Assembly: GCA_951406725.2 (NCBI GenBank)
Contig: OX597841.1
Span: forward strand, 28,210,001 to 28,274,000
Reading direction: 5' to 3'
Source: Octopus vulgaris
Taxonomy: Eukaryota
DNA: 64,000 nucleotides
The notes below the pieces were generated by a model, which was not told the DNA's origin, made no database searches, and saw only the letters and a list, made by a program, of their open reading frames with translations. Both the position numbers and the translations under genes were made by a program. Within the stretch, counting starts at the first letter, position 1. Every line of letters starts with the position of its first letter. This document shows positions 3,827 to 56,023 of this stretch, one piece after another.

Positions 3827-4981
3827 CAGTGCTTTTCAACCATTTTGCTGGAGTAGAACCCCAAGGAAACATTCCACTGGCTCGAGGAACCCCTGTGCAA
3901 TAATTTAATAGTCTTATGCACACATATCTGCACAGGAGAATTAAAAATTACTGTCGATTTTAGCAGTTTTGTAACTTCTTGTGGAACCCCTGGACTGTAC
4001 TGGCGGAACCCTGGTTGAAAACCACTGAGTTAGACACAGTCAGTTAGACACTAGTTAGACCAGTGCTTTTCAATATTTTTGCTGGAGCAGAACCCCAAGG
4101 AAACATTCCACTGGCTCGAGGAACCCCTGTGCAATAATTTAATAGTCTTATGCACACATATCTGCACAGGAGAATTAAAAATTACTGCCGATTTTAGCAT
4201 TTTTGTAACTTCTTGCAGAACCCCTGGACTGTACTGGCGGAACCCTGGTTGAAAACCACTGAGTTAGACACAGTCAGTTAGACACTAGTTAGACCAGTGC
4301 TTTTCAAACTTTTTGCTGGAGCGGAACCCCCAAGGAAACATTCCACTGGCTCGAGGAACCCCTGTGCAATAATTTAATAGTCTTAGGCACACATATCTGC
4401 ACAGGAGAATTAAAAATTACTGCCGATTTTAGCAGTTTTGTAACTTCTTGCGGAACCCCCGGACTGTACTGGCGGAACCCTGGTTGAAAACCACTGAGTT
4501 AGACACAGTCAGTTAGACACTAGTTAGACCAGTGCTTTTCAATCTTTTTGCTGGAGCGGAACCCCAAGGAAACATTCCACTGGCTCGAGGAACCACTGTG
4601 CCATAATTTAATAGTCTTATGCACACATATCTGCACAGGAGAATTAAAAATTACTGCCGATTTTAGCAGTTTTGTAACTTCTTGCGGAACCCCGGACTGT
4701 ACTGGCGGAACCCTGGTTGAAAACCACTGAGTTAGACACAGTCAGTTAGACACTAGTTAGACCAGTGCTTTTCAATCTTTTTGCTGGAGCGGAACCCCAA
4801 GGAAACATTCCACTGGCTCGAGGAACCACTGTGCCATAATTTAATAGTCTTAGGCACACATATCTGCACAGGAGAATTAAAAATTACTGCCGATTTTAGC
4901 AGTTTTGTAACTTCTTGCAGAACCCCTGGTCTGTACTGGCGGAACCCTAAGGTTCCGCAGAACCCTGGTTGAAAACCACTG
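3827..4981. mobile_element. Tandem array of 5 hAT MITEs (about 201 bp plus 33-bp spacer)
   Basis: TIRs CAGTGCTTTTCAACC / GGTTGAAAACCACTG. Units start at 3827, 4061, 4295, 4530, 4763. Outer TSD CCTTACGC at 3819-3826 and 4982-4989. Confidence 0.92.
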
Positions 4982-9687: not shown

Positions 9688-10915
9688 TCTTTATATATAA
9701 AGCTGAAGTTGTCTGTGTATGGCAGGTTTGGTAGCCTTCTACTAACCCTATCTCCTCCGAGACCCTGTGACAAAAGTTGACCAAAATTGAGAGAATGATA
9801 GAAGAAGGCTTGCTCTTCCTTCCGTAGAAGAAAAAATTCAAATCGGACCATGTTAACACCAAAAATTATTTACATCAAAAAGGTGCTTTTTTCTATGAAA
9901 ATCCCTATTTTTTACTATTTATAAAGTTGAAGTTGTCTGTGTATGGCAGGTTTGGTAGCCTTCTACTAACCCTATCTCCTCCGAGACCCTGTGACAAAAG
10001 TTGACCAAAATTGAGAGAATGATAGAAGAAGGCTTGCTCTTCCTTCCGTAGAAGAAAAAATTCAAATCGGACCATGTTAACACCAAAAATTATTTACATC
10101 AAAAAGGTGCTTTTCTTCTATGAAAATCCCTATTTTTTACTATTTATAAAGTTGAAGTTGTCTGTGTATGACAGGTTTGGTAGCCTTCAACAAACACTAT
10201 CTCTTCCGAGACCCTGCGGTACAAGTTGACCAAAATTGAGAGTATGATAGAAGAAGGCTTGCTCTTCCTTCCGTAGAAGAAAAAAATTCAAATCGAACCA
10301 TGTTAACACAAAAATTATTTACATCAAAAAGGTGGGTTTTTTTCTATGAAAATCCCTATTTTTTACGATTTTTTTTACTGCTGTGTCGCCATCTTTTGGT
10401 GAATTTCAACCAGAAAAATGTTCACTTAAAGAGAATAACAAGCTACATAATGCAAAATTTTTATTTTTCAAAAATTCCAATTCTAAAGGGTTGAAACAAA
10501 CCCGAGCAATGCCGGGCGATACTGCTAGTATATATATATAAAGCTGAAGTTGTCTGTGTATGGCAGGTTTGGTAGCCTTCAACTAACACTATCTCCTCCA
10601 AGACCCTGTGGTGCAAGTTGACCAAAATTGAGAGTATGATAGAAGAAGGCTTGCTCTTTCTTCCGTAGAAGGAAAAATTCAAATCAGACCATGTTAACAC
10701 AAAAATTATTTACATCAAAAAGGTGGGTTTTTTTCTATGAAAATCCCTATTTTTTACGATTTTTGACTGTTGTGTCGCCGTTTTGCGGTGTATTTCAACC
10801 AGAAAAATGTTCGCTTAAAGAGAATAACAAGTTACATAATGCAAAATTTACTTTTCAAAAATTCCAATTCTAAAGGGTCGAAACAAACCTGAGCAACGCC
10901 AGGCGATACTACTTG
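9688..10915 (+). mobile_element. Non-autonomous Helitron with 3 x 225-bp internal repeat, plus a head-to-tail second unit
   Basis: A|TCTTTATATATAAA start; 3' hairpin CCCGAGCAATGCCGGG then CTAG|T at 10525-10528; second unit 10530-10915. Confidence 0.85.
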
Positions 10916-47668: not shown

Positions 47669-48307
47669 TTAATTAAAAGAAACAGAGCATCTCAAAATCA
47701 ATACAGTAACGAAAGGGTTAAGATCAGTAAAATCTTTAAACCTTCTCATTGAGTCTTCTCTTAGTGTCTGCAGATGTAAAAAAAGCAATCTATATCTGTA
47801 TCTAGCATTAAATTTCTTTAGGGCAGCAAACAAGCAGAATGGCTACAACCCTGGGTATAATGTTCAGCAGCATGTCACCCATCTTTATATTCTGAGTTCA
47901 AATTCTGTTGAAGTCAACTTTGCTTTTCTTCCTTCCAGGGTCGATAAAATAAGCATCAGCTGAGGACTGGGGTCTATGTAATTGACTTAACCCCTCCCCC
48001 AAAATTGCTGGCCTTGTGCCAAAATCTAAACCCGGTGTTAAACTGCTATCATGGTTTTCTATTATGTATGGGCTTAGAAACTGTGAAAAAAAAATCTCTC
48101 TTTGTTGAATGATAATTTACTGATAAAATCAAAACAAATCAAAATAGATGAACATCAATGGAATTTGTATCTTCGTGGTACCAGTGCCGGTGGCACACAA
48201 GAAAACCATCCGAATGTGGTCGTAGCCAGTACCGCATCGACTGGCCTCCGTGCTGTGGGCACATAACAAACACCATCCGATCGTGGCCGTTCGCCAGCCT
48301 CATCTGG

Positions 48308-49181: not shown

Positions 49182-52100
49182 TATTGGGTTGTCTGGAAAG
49201 TTTGTGCCGATTTATAGTAGCTTACCTTTCGACTTATTTTAGAACATGGTTGAGTCCATAAAATAGGATTTGACTACACCTCCATTTAGAGCACAGTTTA
49301 AGCTAGCTCTGCTTTTCTATCAAGATATTGGGTTGTCTGGAAAGTTCGTGCCGATTTATAGTAGCTTACCTTTTGACTTATTTTAGAACATGGTTGAGTC
49401 CATAAAATAGGATTTGACTACACCTCCATTTAGAGCACAGTTTAAGCTAGCTCTGCTTTTCTATCAAGATATTGGGTTGTCTGGAAAGTTTGTGCCGATT
49501 TATAGTAGCTTACCTTTCGACTTATTTTAGAACATGGTTGAGTCCATAAAATAGGATTTGACTACACCTCCATTTAGAGCACAGTTTAAGCTAGCTCTGC
49601 TTTTCTCTCAAGATATTGGGTTGTCTGGAAAGTTCGTGCCGATTTATAGTAGCTTACCTTTCGACTTATTTTAGAACATGGTTGAGTCCATAAAATAGGA
49701 TTTGACTACACCTCCATTTAGAGCACAGTTTAAGCTAGCTCTGCTTTTCTATCAAGATATTGGGTTGTCTGGAAAGTTTGTGCCGATTTATAGTAGCTTA
49801 CCTTTTGACTTATTTTAGAACATGGTTGAGTCCATAAAATAGGATTTGACTACACCTCCATTTAGAGCACAGTTTAAGCTAGCTCTGCTTTTCTATCAAG
49901 ATATTGGGTTGTCTGGAAAGTTTGTGCCGATTTATAGTAGCTTACCTTTTGACTTATTTTAGAACATGGTTGAGTCCATAAAATAGGATTTGACTACACC
50001 TCCATTTAGAGCACAGTTTAAGCTAGCTCTGCTTTTCTATCAAGATATTGGGTTGTCTGGAAAGTTCGTGCCGATTTATAGTAGCTTACCTTTCGACTTA
50101 TTTTAGAACATGGTTGAGTCCATAAAATAGGATTTGACTACACCTCCATTTAGAGCACAGTTTAAGCTAGCTCTGCTTTTCTATCAAGATATTGGGTTGT
50201 CTGGAAAGTTTGTGCCGATTTATAGTAGCTTACCTTTTGACTTATTTTAGAACATGGTTGAGTCCATAAAATAGGATTTGACTACACCTCCATTTAGAGC
50301 ACAGTTTAAGCTAGCTCTGCTTTTCTCTCAAGATATTGGGTTGTCTGGAAAGTTTGTGCCGATTTATAGTAGCTTACCTTTTGACTTATTTTAGAACATG
50401 GTTGAGTCCATAAAATAGGATTTGACTACACCTCCATTTAGAGCACAGTTTAAGCTAGCTCTGCTTTTCTCTCAAGATATTGGGTTGTCTGGAAAGTTTG
50501 TGCCGATTTATAGTAGCTTACCTTTCGACTTATTTTAGAACATGGTTGAGTCCATAAAATAGGATTTGACTACACCTCCATTTAGAGCACAGTTTAAGCT
50601 AGCTCTGCTTTTCTCTCAAGATATTGGGTTGTCTGGAAAGTTTGTGCCGATTTATAGTAGCTTACCTTTCGACTTATTTTAGAACATGGTTGAGTCCATA
50701 AAATAGGATTTGACTACACCTCCATTTAGAGCACAGTTTAAGCTAGCTCTGCTTTTCTCTCAAGATATTGGGTTGTCTGGAAAGTTTGTGCCGATTTATA
50801 GTAGCTTACCTTTCGACTTATTTTAGAACATGGTTGAGTCCATAAAATAGGATTTGACTACACCTCCATTTAGAGCACAGTTTAAGCTAGCTCTGCTTTT
50901 CTCTCAAGATATTGGGTTGTCTGGAAAGTTTGTGCCGATTTATAGTAGCTTACCTTTCGACTTATTTTAGAACATGGTTGAGTCCATAAAATAGGATTTG
51001 ACTACACCTCCATTTAGAGCACAGTTTAAGCTAGCTCTGCTTTTCTCTCAAGATATTGGGTTGTCTGGAAAGTTTGTGCCGATTTATAGTAGCTTACCTT
51101 TCGACTTATTTTAGAACATGGTTGAGTCCATAAAATAGGATTTGACTACACCTCCATTTAGAGCACAGTTTAAGCTAGCTCTGCTTTTCTCTCAAGATAT
51201 TGGGTTGTCTGGAAAGTTTGTGCCGATTTATAGTAGCTTACCTTTCGACTTATTTTAGAACATGGTTGAGTCCATAAAATAGGATTTGACTACACCTCCA
51301 TTTAGAGCACAGTTTAAGCTAGCTCTGCTTTTCTCTCAAGATATTGGGTTGTCTGGAAAGTTTGTGCCGATTTATAGTAGCTTACCTTTCGACTTATTTT
51401 AGAACATGGTTGAGTCCATAAAATAGGATTTGACTACACCTCCATTTAGAGCACAGTTTAAGCTAGCTCTGCTTTTCTCTCAAGATATTGGGTTGTCTGG
51501 AAAGTTTGTGCCGATTTATAGTAGCTTACCTTTTGACTTATTTTAGAACATGGTTGAGTCCATAAAATAGGATTTGACTACACCTCCATTTAGAGCACAG
51601 TTTAAGCTAGCTCTGCTTTTCTCTCAAGATATTGGGTTGTCTGGAAAGTTTGTGCCGATTTATAGTAGCTTACCTTTTGACTTATTTTAGAACATGGTTG
51701 AGTCCATAAAATAGGATTTGACTACACCTCCATTTAGAGCACAGTTTAAGCTAGCTCTGCTTTTCTCTCAAGATATTGGGTTGTCTGGAAAGTTCGTGCC
51801 GATTTATAGTAGCTTACCTTTCGACTTATTTTAGAACATGGTTGAGTCCATAAAATAGGATTTGACTACACCTCCATTTAGAGCACAGTTTAAGCTAGCT
51901 CTGCTTTTCTCTCAAGATATTGGGTTGTCTGGAAAGTTTGTGCCGATTTATAGTAGCTTACCTTTCGACTTATTTTAGAACATGGTTGAGTCCATAAAAT
52001 AGGATTTGACTACACCTCCATTTAGAGCACAGTTTAAGCTAGCTCTGCTTTTCTCTCAAGATATTGGGTTGTCTGGAAAGTTTGTGCCGATTTATAGTAG

Positions 52101-54343
52101 CTTACCTTTCGACTTATTTTAGAACATGGTTGAGTCCATAAAATAGGATTTGACTACACCTCCATTTAGAGCACAGTTTAAGCTAGCTCTGCTTTTCTCT
52201 CAAGATATTGGGTTGTCCGGAAAGTTTGTGCCGATTTATAGTAGCTTACCTTTCGACTTATTTTAAAACATGGTTGAGTCCATAAAATAGGATTTGACTA
52301 CACCTCCATTTAGAGCACAGTTTAAGCTAGCTCTGCTTTTCTCTCAAGATATTGGGTTGTCCGGAAAGTTCGTGCCGATTTATAGTAGTTTACCTTTCGA
52401 CTTATTTTAGAACATGGTTGAGTCCATAAAATAGGATTTGACTACACCTTCATTCAGAGCCCAGTTTAAGCCAGCTCTGCTTTTCTCTCAAGATATTGGG
52501 TTGTCTGGAAAGTTTGTGCCGATTTATAGTAGCTTACCTTTCGACTTATTTTAGAACATGGTTGAGTCCATAAAATAGGATTTGACTACACTTCCATTTA
52601 GAGCACAGTTTAAGCTAGCTCTGCTTTTCTCTCAAGATATTGGGTTGTCCGGAAAATTCGTGCCGATTTATAGTAGCTTACCTTTTGACTTATTTTAGAA
52701 CATGGTTGAGTCCATAAAATAGGATTTGACTACACCTCCATTTAGAGCACAGTTTAAGCTAGCTCTGCTTTTCTCTCAAGATATTGGGTTGTCTGGAAAA
52801 TTTGTGCCGGTTTATAGTAGCTTACCTTTTGACTTAGTTTAGAACATGGTTGAGTCCATAAAATAGGATTTGACTACACCTCCATTTAGAGCACAGTTTA
52901 AGCTAGCTCTGCTTTTCTCTCAAGATATTGGTTGTCTGGAAAGTTTGTGCCGATTTATAGTAGCTTACCTTTCGACTTATTTTAGAACATGGTTGAGTCC
53001 ATAAAATAGGATTTGACTACACCTCCATTTAGAGCCCAGTTTAAGCTAGCTCTGCTTTTCTCTCAAGATATTGGGTTGTCTGGAAAGTTTGTGCCGATTT
53101 ATAGTAGCTTACCTTTCGACTTATTTTAGAACATGGTTGAGTCCATAAAATAGGATTTGACTACACCTCCATTTAGAGCCCAGTTTAATCTAGCTCTGCT
53201 TTTCTCTCAAGATATTGGGTTGTCTGGAAAGTTCGTGCCGATTTATAGTAGCTTACCTTTCGACTTATTTTAGAACATGGTTGAGTCCATAAAATAGGAT
53301 TTGACTACACCTCCATTTAGAGCACAGTTTAAGCTAGCTCTGCTTTTCTCTCAAGATATTGGGTTGTCTGGAAAGTTTGTGCCGATTTATAGTAGCTTAC
53401 CTTTCGACTTATTTTAGAACATGGTTGAGTCCATAAAATAGGATTTGACTACACCTCCATTTAGAGCACAGTTTAAGCTAGCTCTGCTTTTCTCTCAAGA
53501 TATTGGGTTGTCTGGAAAGTTTGTGCCGATTTATAGTAGCTTACCTTTCGACTTATTTTAGAACATGGTTGAGTCCATAAAATAGGATTGACTACACCTC
53601 CATTCAGGGCACAGTTTAAGCTAGCTCTGCTTTTCTCTCAAGATATTGGGTTGTCTGGAAAGTTTGTGCCGATTTATAGTAGCTTGCCTTTTGACTTATT
53701 TTAGAACATGGTTGAGTCCATAAAATAGGATTTGACTACACCTCCATTTAGAGCACAGTTTAAGCTAGCTCTGCTTTTCTCTCAAGATATTGGGTTGTCT
53801 GGAAAGTTTGTGCCGATTTATAGTAGCTTACCTTTCGACTTATTTTAGAACATGGTTGAGTCCATAAAATAGGATTTGACTACACCTCCATTTAGAGCAC
53901 AGTTTAAGCTAGCTCTGCTTTTCTCTCAAGATATTGGGTTGTCTGGAAAGTTTGTGCCGATTTATAGTAGCTTGCCTTTCGACTTATTTTAGAACATGGC
54001 TGAGTCCATAAAATAGGATTTGACTACACCTCCATTTAGAGCACAGTTTAAGCTAGCTCTGCTTTTCTCTCAAGATATTGGGTTGTCTGGAAAGTTTGTG
54101 CCGATTTATAGTAGCTTACCTTTCGACTTATTTTAGAACATGGTTGAGTCCATAAAATAGGATTTGACTACACCTCCATTTAGAGCACAGTTTAAGCTAG
54201 CTCTGCTTTTCTCTCAAGATATTGGGTTGTCTGGAAAGTTTGTGCCGATTTATAGTAGCTTACCTTTCGACATATTTTAGAACATGGTTGAGTCCATAAA
54301 ATAGGATTTGGCTACACCTCCATTTAGAGCCCAGTTTAAGCTA
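49182..54343 (+). repeat. 36 x 144-bp satellite derived from a mariner left end
   Basis: Unit starts TATTGGGTTGTCTGGAAAGTTTGTGCCGATTT at 49182, 49326 ... 54220; the last unit runs into the mariner 5' UTR and ATG at 54404. Confidence 0.95.
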
Positions 54344-54403
54344 TCTTTTCGTGGAAGAAGGTTTATGTTCGTATAACCTGTGTTAATTCTGTAACCCTTT
54401 AAA

Positions 54404-54670
54404 ATGGAAGATAAGAAAGTTCATTTTCGGCACTTGATGCTTTGGGAACCAGACAAAAATTGCTGCAGCTCGGCTGGGATGTGCTACCCTACCCTCCATA
54501 TTCACCAGATATTGCTCCTTCGGATTTCTACTTATTCAGGTCTCTGCAGAATTGTCTTAATGGTAAAAATTTCAATTCCTTGGATGACATAAAAAGATAC
54601 CTTGATGAATTCTTTGCCATGAAACCACCTCAATTCTGGGAAGAGGGTAAGTTAAAGGAAAGATGGAGAC
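54404..54670 (+). pseudogene. Internally deleted mariner transposase (probably mellifera-like)
   Basis: MEDKKVHFRHLMLWE fused to TRQKLLQLGWDVLPYPPYSPDIAPSDFYLFRSLQNCLNGKNF...; YSPD.APSD motif. Confidence 0.9.
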
Positions 54671-55220
54671 CCATAAAATAGGATTTCACTACACCTCCAT
54701 TTAGAGCACAGTTTAAGCTATCTCTTCGTGGAAGAAGGTTTATGTTCCTATAACCTGTGTTAATTCTGTAACCCTTTAAAATGGAAGATAGAAAGTTCAT
54801 TTTCGGCACTTGATGCTTTGGGAACCAGACAAAAGGGTTACAGAATTAACACAGGTTATAGGAACAAAAACCTTCTTCTACGAAAAGATAGCTTATACAG
54901 TGCTCTAAATGGAGGTGTAGTCAAATCCTATTTTATGGACTCAACCATGTTCTAAAATAAGTCAAAAGGTAAGCTACTATAAATTGGCACAAACTTTCCA
55001 GACAACCCAATATCTTGAGAGAAAAGCAGAGCTAGCTTAAACTGGGCTCTAAATGGAGGTGTAGTCAAATCCTATTTTATAGACTCAACCATGTTCTAAA
55101 ATAAGTCGAAAGGTAAGCTACTATAAATCGGCGCGAACATTTTTTACCATTAAGACTATTCTGCAGAGACCTGAATAAGTGGAAATCTGAAGGAGCAATA
55201 TCTGGTGAATATGGAGGGTG
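54671..55220. mobile_element. Duplicated and inverted mariner fragments (fold-back)
   Basis: 54671-54777 pairs with 54832-54938; inverted satellite units continue to 55137; inverted transposase piece at 55138-55220. Confidence 0.88.
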
Positions 55221-56023
55221 GAAGGATATCAGCCAAAATGTGTTAGCAACAAAGATGAGGAGAAATATCCATCAAATGTAAACAATGTACATAATTCCTA
55301 ATCTATTAAATATAGAACAGTCTAGAGTTGTTTGCTTAGAAGCCTTTTTTGCCCTCTATAAATTTCTCGGTAACACACAGAAGCATTTGTTATGGTAATA
55401 GAAACTTTTGCACTTTGTTCAAAATTTATATCTACTACAAAAGAAAACTTGTAAAAAACCCTGGGGCCTCATAAGGCAGATCCTTGTAAAGTGAGTTATT
55501 ACTGTTTTGCTGCTGTCTTCCTCTTCTTCTGCCAATCAGGACTCATGCCATTAGTCACAAAGAAAAATCTCTAATTTGAGCCTACTCTAAGCGACTAGAG
55601 TATGCGTGGCAACTTGAAGACCCACCCACCACACGCGATGGACTGGCGCGAAAGCTACGTTGTTATCCTCATTCCATAAACAGTGGCTTTTAATGGGTGG
55701 AGAGCTGAACCATCCTGGGGTACAGAGGATTTGCAATCTAGACTAGGGTCTGAAAGTTTACCACACCATAGAGGGTTAGACCACGGTTCCTCTGCTTTGT
55801 GGCAGAAGTGGGAAGAAAGAGTGAGAGAAAGTTGTGGTGAAAGAGTACAGCGGGACTCACCACCACCCTCTGCCGGAGCCTCATGGAGCTTAGGTGTTTT
55901 TGCTCAATAAACACACACAAAGCCCGGTCTGGGAATCGAAACCGCGTTCTTACGACCGCGAGTCCGCTGCCCTAACCACTGGACCATTGTGCCTCCATTG
56001 CTGCTGCTAATAACCATCTTTAA

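Follow-up and report, generated by a model that had tools for sequence, protein, structure and literature searches.

Introduction

Transposon-born tandem arrays are already known, and among the closest described systems are the tandem dimers of hobo, Bari1 and the P element, which expand into arrays (McGurk and Barbash 2018, PMC5932611). Here we analyse a 64,000-nucleotide stretch of Octopus vulgaris DNA (contig OX597841.1, positions 28,210,001 to 28,274,000; "the window", with positions counted from its first letter), which at 49182-54343 holds a 144-bp tandem repeat built from left ends of a mariner transposon and a foreign linker, and which also holds arrays of a hAT-like MITE (miniature inverted-repeat transposable element). 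These arrays resemble those of hobo, Bari1 and P in their single founding junction, in an old target word between terminal inverted repeats (TIRs) and in an expansion attributable to unequal exchange (PMC5932611). The hobo array, however, goes back to one dimer at one locus, whereas here one junction is found at 13 (mariner) or about 34 (hAT-like) sites of a single chromosome, and the mariner unit consists of the left end only, unlike the units of hobo-type arrays.

Non-autonomous transposons with an array of variable repeat number, and composites of MITEs and arrays, are likewise represented by miDNA4 (Tc1/mariner) and by Xstir and Xmix of Xenopus (PMC12628747, PMC9659126). Their repeats are internal, whereas each mariner unit of the octopus array includes a TIR with its TA as well as a linker of foreign origin, and the sections of these reports that treat the three elements make no mention of chromosome confinement. 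Gap filling in Pack-TIR elements offers another parallel: a TIR element already in place is filled by copying that does not depend on transposition, with a preference for sources on the same chromosome (59.8% of 281); the fillers there are, however, host sequences, mostly single-copy and within 15 kb, whereas here a transposon-end cassette is repeated over 25 Mb (PMC8277862). At inversion breakpoints of cod, tandem hAT-derived MITE repeats are common to distant chromosome sites, and ectopic recombination has been proposed; those repeats are limited to breakpoints on two chromosomes, and sites of one family on one chromosome that are mostly multimers are not described in the section that treats them (PMC12368964). 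The SIDER2 subfamilies of Leishmania are similar in being restricted by position, but they are extinct retroposons with no clear target duplications and no tandem cassettes (PMC2424063). In the open-access literature searched, we found neither the present family nor linker cassettes of unrelated DNA transposons that are confined to one chromosome; closer cases may be contained in the supplements to PMC12368964 and PMC9659126.

Results

A tandem array of mariner left ends joined by a foreign linker

Tandem Repeats Finder gives a period of 144, 35.9 copies and 98% matches at 49182-54343. The array comprises 36 TA-TIR starts and 35 full-length units (144 bp in 33 of them, 143 bp in two; 49182..54219, forward strand), each of which consists of TA, positions 1-122 of the mariner element (a TIR of about 30 bp and 5' untranslated region, UTR) and a 20-bp linker. 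The outer left edge coincides exactly with a TA-TIR, whose TA target dinucleotide lies at 49182..49183 (forward strand), and the first linker, a copy with the C138A variant, stands at 49306..49325 (forward strand) and is repeated each 144 bp; the unit has this length because the breakpoints set it. The linker occurs in neither mariner consensus: aligned without gaps to the 566-bp or the 1,284-bp sequence, it has at best 7-9 mismatches in 20, and we therefore rejected the idea that it is a normal part of the element. An earlier note on this stretch, made from the sequence alone, had described 36 mariner termini, a linker of 21-22 bp foreign to the UTR and an array that starts exactly at a TA-TIR. 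Termini, foreign linker and start are all confirmed; the linker itself is 20 bp long and is present 35 times on the forward strand, with one further, inverted copy in the right end. The AGCT word that the same note had taken for a microhomology is not collapsed and stands twice at the join (AGCT-AGCT). The 144-bp repeat is thus a tandem array derived from a transposable element, with head-to-tail units homologous to a segment of that element. It differs from classical satellite DNA, as the largest array measures 5 kb, arrays have 1-35 units and 11 of 13 arrays are attached to an element body.

Variation among the units is spatially ordered. There are 17 distinct unit sequences, 13 of the 35 units are identical to the modal one, and units 10-16 form a run of identical sequence. 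The mean difference from the mode is 0.25 in units 10-21 versus 2.4 in units 22-35, adjacent units are more alike than chance would allow (p=0.02; Mantel rho 0.11, p=0.047), and the CTATCAAG variant (C138A) is confined to units 1, 2, 4, 5, 6 and 7 (chance about 1e-4). The local stepwise expansion proposed earlier from the position of this variant is supported. The most frequent changes (positions 13, 22 and 49) are of CpG type, a class that accounts for 39 of the 180 locus-level substitutions at 8 of the 144 sites, which suggests, as a reading of these base changes, past methylation.

The 36th left end continues into a rearranged copy of a 566-bp mariner deletion derivative. Positions 1-459 of the derivative (54222..54674, forward strand) hold 5' UTR, transposase start, deletion junction and a C-terminal fragment with YSPDI. 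They are followed by an internal duplication of positions 73-237 (54671..54834, forward strand), an inverted left end with positions 1-179, TA included (54832..55012, reverse strand), the inverted linker (55013..55032, reverse strand) and inverted positions 14-122 joined to 268-348 (55033..55221, reverse strand), whose 348|14 junction recurs at loci L036 and L077. The DNA right of 55221 is unrelated, and the array has no right TIR at its right end. This rearranged right end (54671-55221), with its inverted linker and without a right TIR, had been missed before.

The element family itself is widely dispersed. The body family is a 566-bp derivative that arose by a 718-bp deletion and kept both ends. 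The consensus open reading frame (ORF) of the 1,284-bp parent has a DD34D core with the helix-turn-helix (HTH), WVPHEL and YSPDI/L motifs by which mariner transposases are known, and with 34 residues between the second and third Asp. Pfam Transposase_1 and HTH_48 scored above cut-off on locus L086, where the longest mariner ORF seen among the 150 scored of 11,599 candidates, 343 residues without interruption and without the second catalytic Asp, is located (L086:1282-2310). Whole copies were recovered at 10 of 19 loci of the parent (2.9-4.5% from consensus) and, with TA duplications, at 25 of 27 dispersed loci of the derivative (1.4-3.7% from consensus; these 27 are the best matches to the window and hence biased young). 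Most of these 10 and 25 copies are TA-bounded and have matching ends of about 30 bp. An internal 30-mer of the derivative has 1,888 exact matches in the genome, among which the 100 listed are all on chromosome C1; a 225-bp mariner mini element has 131 matches across chromosomes, 11 of the 12 checked standing alone. The 1,284-bp DD34D mariner and its 566-bp derivative are spread genome-wide, and the latter is a non-autonomous, MITE-like deletion derivative of high copy number.

The linker junction is confined to one chromosome

In genome-wide searches, all 77 exact matches to the 20-bp linker lie on chromosome C28, which is a single 29-Mb contig and 1.04% of the assembly. With up to two mismatches there are 105 matches; all 100 of those listed are on C28, and the remaining five sort after C28:4.19 Mb and are therefore not on C1-C27. 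Mariner left-end dimers with any spacer are found on C28 in 54 of 55 cases. The full-length element (2 of 150 scored matches on C28), the mini element and the internal 30-mer served as controls; they demonstrate that the search does detect other chromosomes and that sublineages normally disperse.

The linker arrays form 13 loci between 4.2 and 29.1 Mb of C28, with 1-35 units each and 106 units in total, and their flanks are unrelated and spread over 25 Mb. Ten of the 13 start at an exact TA-TIR and six end in a clean right TIR plus TA; six loci, not including the window array with its right end, are clean on both sides. Four types of body lie under the arrays: the plain derivative, the derivative combined with the 225-bp mini element (three loci), a 459|73 duplication, and a full-length-type 5' half (locus L039). 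Seven of eight matches to the 459|73 junction are on C28, at six loci; the eighth, on C9, is due to chance, there being no mariner at that place. Altogether, 12 of the 16 mariner loci with a C28-only junction fall within 26.4-29.1 Mb. Segmental duplication was considered as the source of the sister arrays and rejected, since the flanks adjacent to the junctions differ and the flank matches are out-of-register dispersed repeats.

Some sister loci have peculiarities of their own. Orphan mariner arrays without a body, at L035:4689-4803 and on the reverse strand of L037 (4570-4686), stop at unit positions 115-117 and were possibly left by excision through an inner TIR. At L071:4140-5291, an eight-unit array shows an alternating pattern of two-unit variants, an incipient higher-order repeat.

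A hAT-like element forms arrays on the same chromosome

A second family in the window, which we call hAT-like by its ends and target length, shows the same confinement. At 3827..4981 (forward strand), five whole MITEs are joined by a 33-bp linker and enclosed by an outer 8-bp target duplication; a 10-unit array with the same flanks at 21464..23828 (forward strand) is its segmental duplicate. Units are 234-252 bp long. The 33-bp linker begins and ends with one old 8-bp target word, from which the outer duplication of the array differs. The parent has 590 exact matches genome-wide, and 26 solo copies have 8-bp duplications with 0-1 mismatch; 90 of 91 matches to the 33-bp linker are on C28, and one is on C24. 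This junction lineage recurs at about 34 separately bounded sites. Among 35 hAT-like loci examined, 23 are clean-ended and all 23 have different target words; the other 12, whose ends are truncated, nested or duplicate, were set aside. A 165-bp linker, in which the right and the left flank of a former insertion site within an older repeat are joined, is present in five near-identical copies at four loci, all on C28, and loci L131 and L132 each mix the 33-bp and 165-bp linkers and hence two original sites.

Most sampled C28 copies of this family are multimers. Outer left ends were sampled by their flanking bases (369 matches, counted by hand; 3 of 103 of one set unlisted). Eighteen of the sampled ends are on C28, 11 classed by their position in known arrays and seven fetched; only three are solo and 15 belong to multimers, versus 17 solo and three multimers among 20 hand-picked sites on C25-27, C29 and C30 (p=5e-5). 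Position 14 of the unit reads A16 C5 T2 in first units and A22 C4 in solo copies, and T in 19 of 23 last units.

A third shared junction type links L181 and L182 (C28:25.73 and 25.96 Mb), which are 230 kb apart. At L140 (C28:29.185 Mb), an array lying roughly 6 kb short of the end of the contig has locally amplified linker fragments, and at L119 (C28:3.85 Mb) the 313-bp spacer between two copies reads as C2H2 zinc-finger coding sequence that was duplicated with the element. Outside C28, hAT-like tandems with microsatellite spacers occur at L190 and L191 (C30, with one spacer in common), L192 (C29), C19:44.2 Mb and C27:10.3 Mb, and there are none on C1-C18. C2H2-rich chromosomes are known in coleoids (PMC9068888); in our loci, 69 C2H2 motifs were found in 269 kb on C28 versus none in 305 kb elsewhere. 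The matches listed for a zinc-finger pattern all fall on C1-C2, a listing that does not bear on C28.

Origin and age of the linker lineage

Two origins can be considered for the 20-bp mariner linker. That it is the lost flank of an earlier insertion site, as the earlier note proposed, seems to us reasonably likely. The genome-wide junction search recommended there did uncover 12 sister loci, which support the view of the note that the repeat began elsewhere; it yielded no donor, as no linker copy with non-mariner DNA upstream was found in the genome-wide linker searches. A donor candidate on C17, a single-copy contig seen in two runs, was rejected, as it adjoins a right end and only 10 of 12 bases match. 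Flank capture does happen on C28, given the composition of the 165-bp hAT-like linker. The alternative, a locally templated repair insertion patched together from nearby sequence of the element itself, is possible, though we would not favour it. It is in line with the missing donor flank, with the 15 of 20 linker bases that are covered by 6-mers of element positions 96-145 on either strand (P=0.007 against 4,000 TA-preceding 20-mers, 0.004 against shuffles) and with a 14-base linker window that agrees with the continuation of the element at 10 positions (P=0.03-0.04). The signal fades, however, with 5-mers or a wider window (P=0.08, 0.41, 0.04; six tests altogether). P was 0.004-0.04 in four templating tests and 0.08-0.41 in three.

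The word "young" in the earlier note fits the homogenised middle of the window array, but not the lineage as a whole. Units diverge by 1.8% within the window array versus 4.6% between loci. The whole linker is also present in contigs of three other runs, which represent a further organism A sample, organism B and organism C, with 26 element bases to its left and 12-21 TA-TIR bases to its right, which is under the 31-base bridging rule for the 74-base query. The lineage is therefore older than "young" implies and, if these labels stand for distinct species, older than the split of A, B and C. Contigs of organism D have the TIR, and the linker was not seen in them; such contigs show presence, not absence. 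The join of flank and TIR at the window is likewise found in a contig of another organism A sample (26 bases on the element side), and the flank contigs of organisms B and C depart from the sequence of the window 43 bp to the left of the array's TA. No RNA data set was listed with the array sequence, which speaks neither for nor against its expression.

Other repeats of the window

The list for the window contains 270 ORFs. An isolated left end of the array's mariner, 43 bp long, lies on the reverse strand at 42025-42067, after a GATA run and broken off into a SINE-like (short interspersed element) repeat. Pieces of dispersed repeats form further short tandem arrays: six copies of 171 bp at 18775, three of 224 bp at 9692, 7.7 of 49 bp at 48303, and dimers of 187, 184, 136 and 112 bp. 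Their junctions may also be confined to C28.

Discussion

We give slightly better than even chances to an explanation in which the linker cassettes were copied between pre-existing elements by homologous recombination within one chromosome, after which unequal exchange extended the arrays locally. With positions 1-122 on either side, the cassette can enter any existing copy in this way. At one site, a left end together with 20 bp of DNA, either adjoining or templated locally, would have been duplicated in tandem, so that the junction was born once. Ectopic repair of breaks on the same chromosome, through gap filling or gene conversion, would then have written the cassette into the 5' ends of other copies, which would have retained their own TA and their own body; alternatively, a small circle may have looped out and re-entered. 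Unequal exchange would account for the observed range from 1 to 35 units and for the homogenised middle of the window array, and template switching may have rearranged its right end. We propose no host function for the arrays.

Such recombinational spread accounts for the confinement, the mixed bodies, the mixed linkers and the scarcity of solo elements, and also for the solo-like position 14 of first hAT-like units and the younger-looking inner units of the mariner arrays. The non-CpG divergence from consensus is 1.83% in non-first mariner units, 3.07% in first units and 2.65% in bodies, and between loci it is 3.25% in non-first units versus 5.07% in bodies. Single units in the right third of the window array carry variants that are common in neighbouring loci. 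The same-chromosome bias expected of products of gap filling or ectopic conversion is seen in both the mariner and the hAT-like family; a cis bias of gap filling and an intrachromosomal donor preference are reported in PMC8277862 and PMC6829126, respectively.

Several observations weigh against this explanation. The density of hAT-like outer ends on C28 is the highest among C20-C30 (18 seen vs 11.7 expected, P=0.05, with one set whose listing stops short of C26 excluded from the count), and new sites of this family were probably added there. The junction types of the mariner loci are nested in the manner of a descent tree; no locus combines the mini-element composite with the 459|73 junction. 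In hAT-like arrays, outer and inner halves show the same divergence (84 vs 96 substitutions, p=0.65), the C14 alleles of first units are without the 15A partner seen in three of four solo C14 copies, and the paired mariner test of first versus other units is not significant (p=0.064, 11 loci). Variants are shared across loci significantly when at least three loci are required (8 vs 2.5, p=0.001); with at least two, the sharing is not significant (21 vs 18, p=0.21), and inheritance could explain it. Edge effects within one founder lineage would also yield the reciprocal marker patterns. The strongest counts, moreover, come from the hAT-like family and not from the mariner itself.

The nesting of junction types and the excess of hAT-like sites on C28 are what local hopping would predict, that is, a movement of array and body as one composite on their outermost TIRs, with landings only on the donor chromosome. 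As in composite transposons, outer TIRs with their own target duplication at unrelated sites are found at 6 of 13 mariner and 23 of 35 hAT-like loci with clean ends; to this can be added the exact TA-TIR at which 10 of the 13 mariner arrays begin, the unrelated flanks, the clustering at 26.4-29.1 Mb and the stops of L035 and L037 at positions 115-117, such as excision through an inner TIR and subsequent resection could leave. According to PMC2753552, such hopping occurs in SB, Tol2, P and Ac. At the same-chromosome rate of 15% given there for Tol2, however, 12 successive jumps within one chromosome have a probability of 1e-10; at an assumed 80% it is 0.07, and 6e-4 for 33 jumps. Derivatives with the same mariner ends are dispersed genome-wide, as are other derivatives of both superfamilies, and hopping leaves the scarce solo hAT-like elements of C28, the mixed-linker arrays and the array with a full-length-type body unexplained. 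We consider this alternative less likely than recombinational spread, and the arrival of the repeat on its outermost TIR, as supposed in the earlier note, is doubtful, with all sister loci on one chromosome and another derivative of the same mariner genome-wide. Some transposition of composites has probably occurred as well, and a mixture of recombinational spread and hopping is plausible. An artefact of assembly or scaffolding in the confinement or the unit number is very improbable: 13 identical units among 35 and the uniform run of units 10-16 might raise the suspicion, but the array has 17 distinct units with ordered variants, the loci have unrelated flanks across 25 Mb of one 29-Mb contig, the linker junction is present in contigs of three other runs, and two unrelated families show the same confinement.

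Returning to recombinational spread, a wider and more tentative proposal, to which we give somewhat less than an even chance, is that the small, zinc-finger-gene-rich C28 is a closed recombination territory. Dispersed DNA transposons of unrelated superfamilies would here be turned into tandem cassettes through ectopic homology-directed repair, and junctions that arose once would spread through most copies on C28 and hardly ever escape from it.

The 144-bp repeat alone is a modest finding, as transposon-born arrays are already known. The surprise lies in the geography: at least five single-origin junctions in two unrelated transposon families recur across 25 Mb at dozens of sites with boundaries of their own, nearly all of them on C28, where most sampled copies of the hAT-like family are now multimers. 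The linkers are natural barcodes, which make it testable to what extent the chromosome bounds homology search or transposon hopping in a natural germline, and in what way chromosome-specific satellites arise from dispersed elements. If the territory proposal is true, transposons become satellites here by a route that needs no transposase and is bounded by the chromosome, and the arrays are a readable record of a process that may also expand gene clusters of C28. The C2H2 zinc-finger clusters beside the array loci could be driven by the same process.

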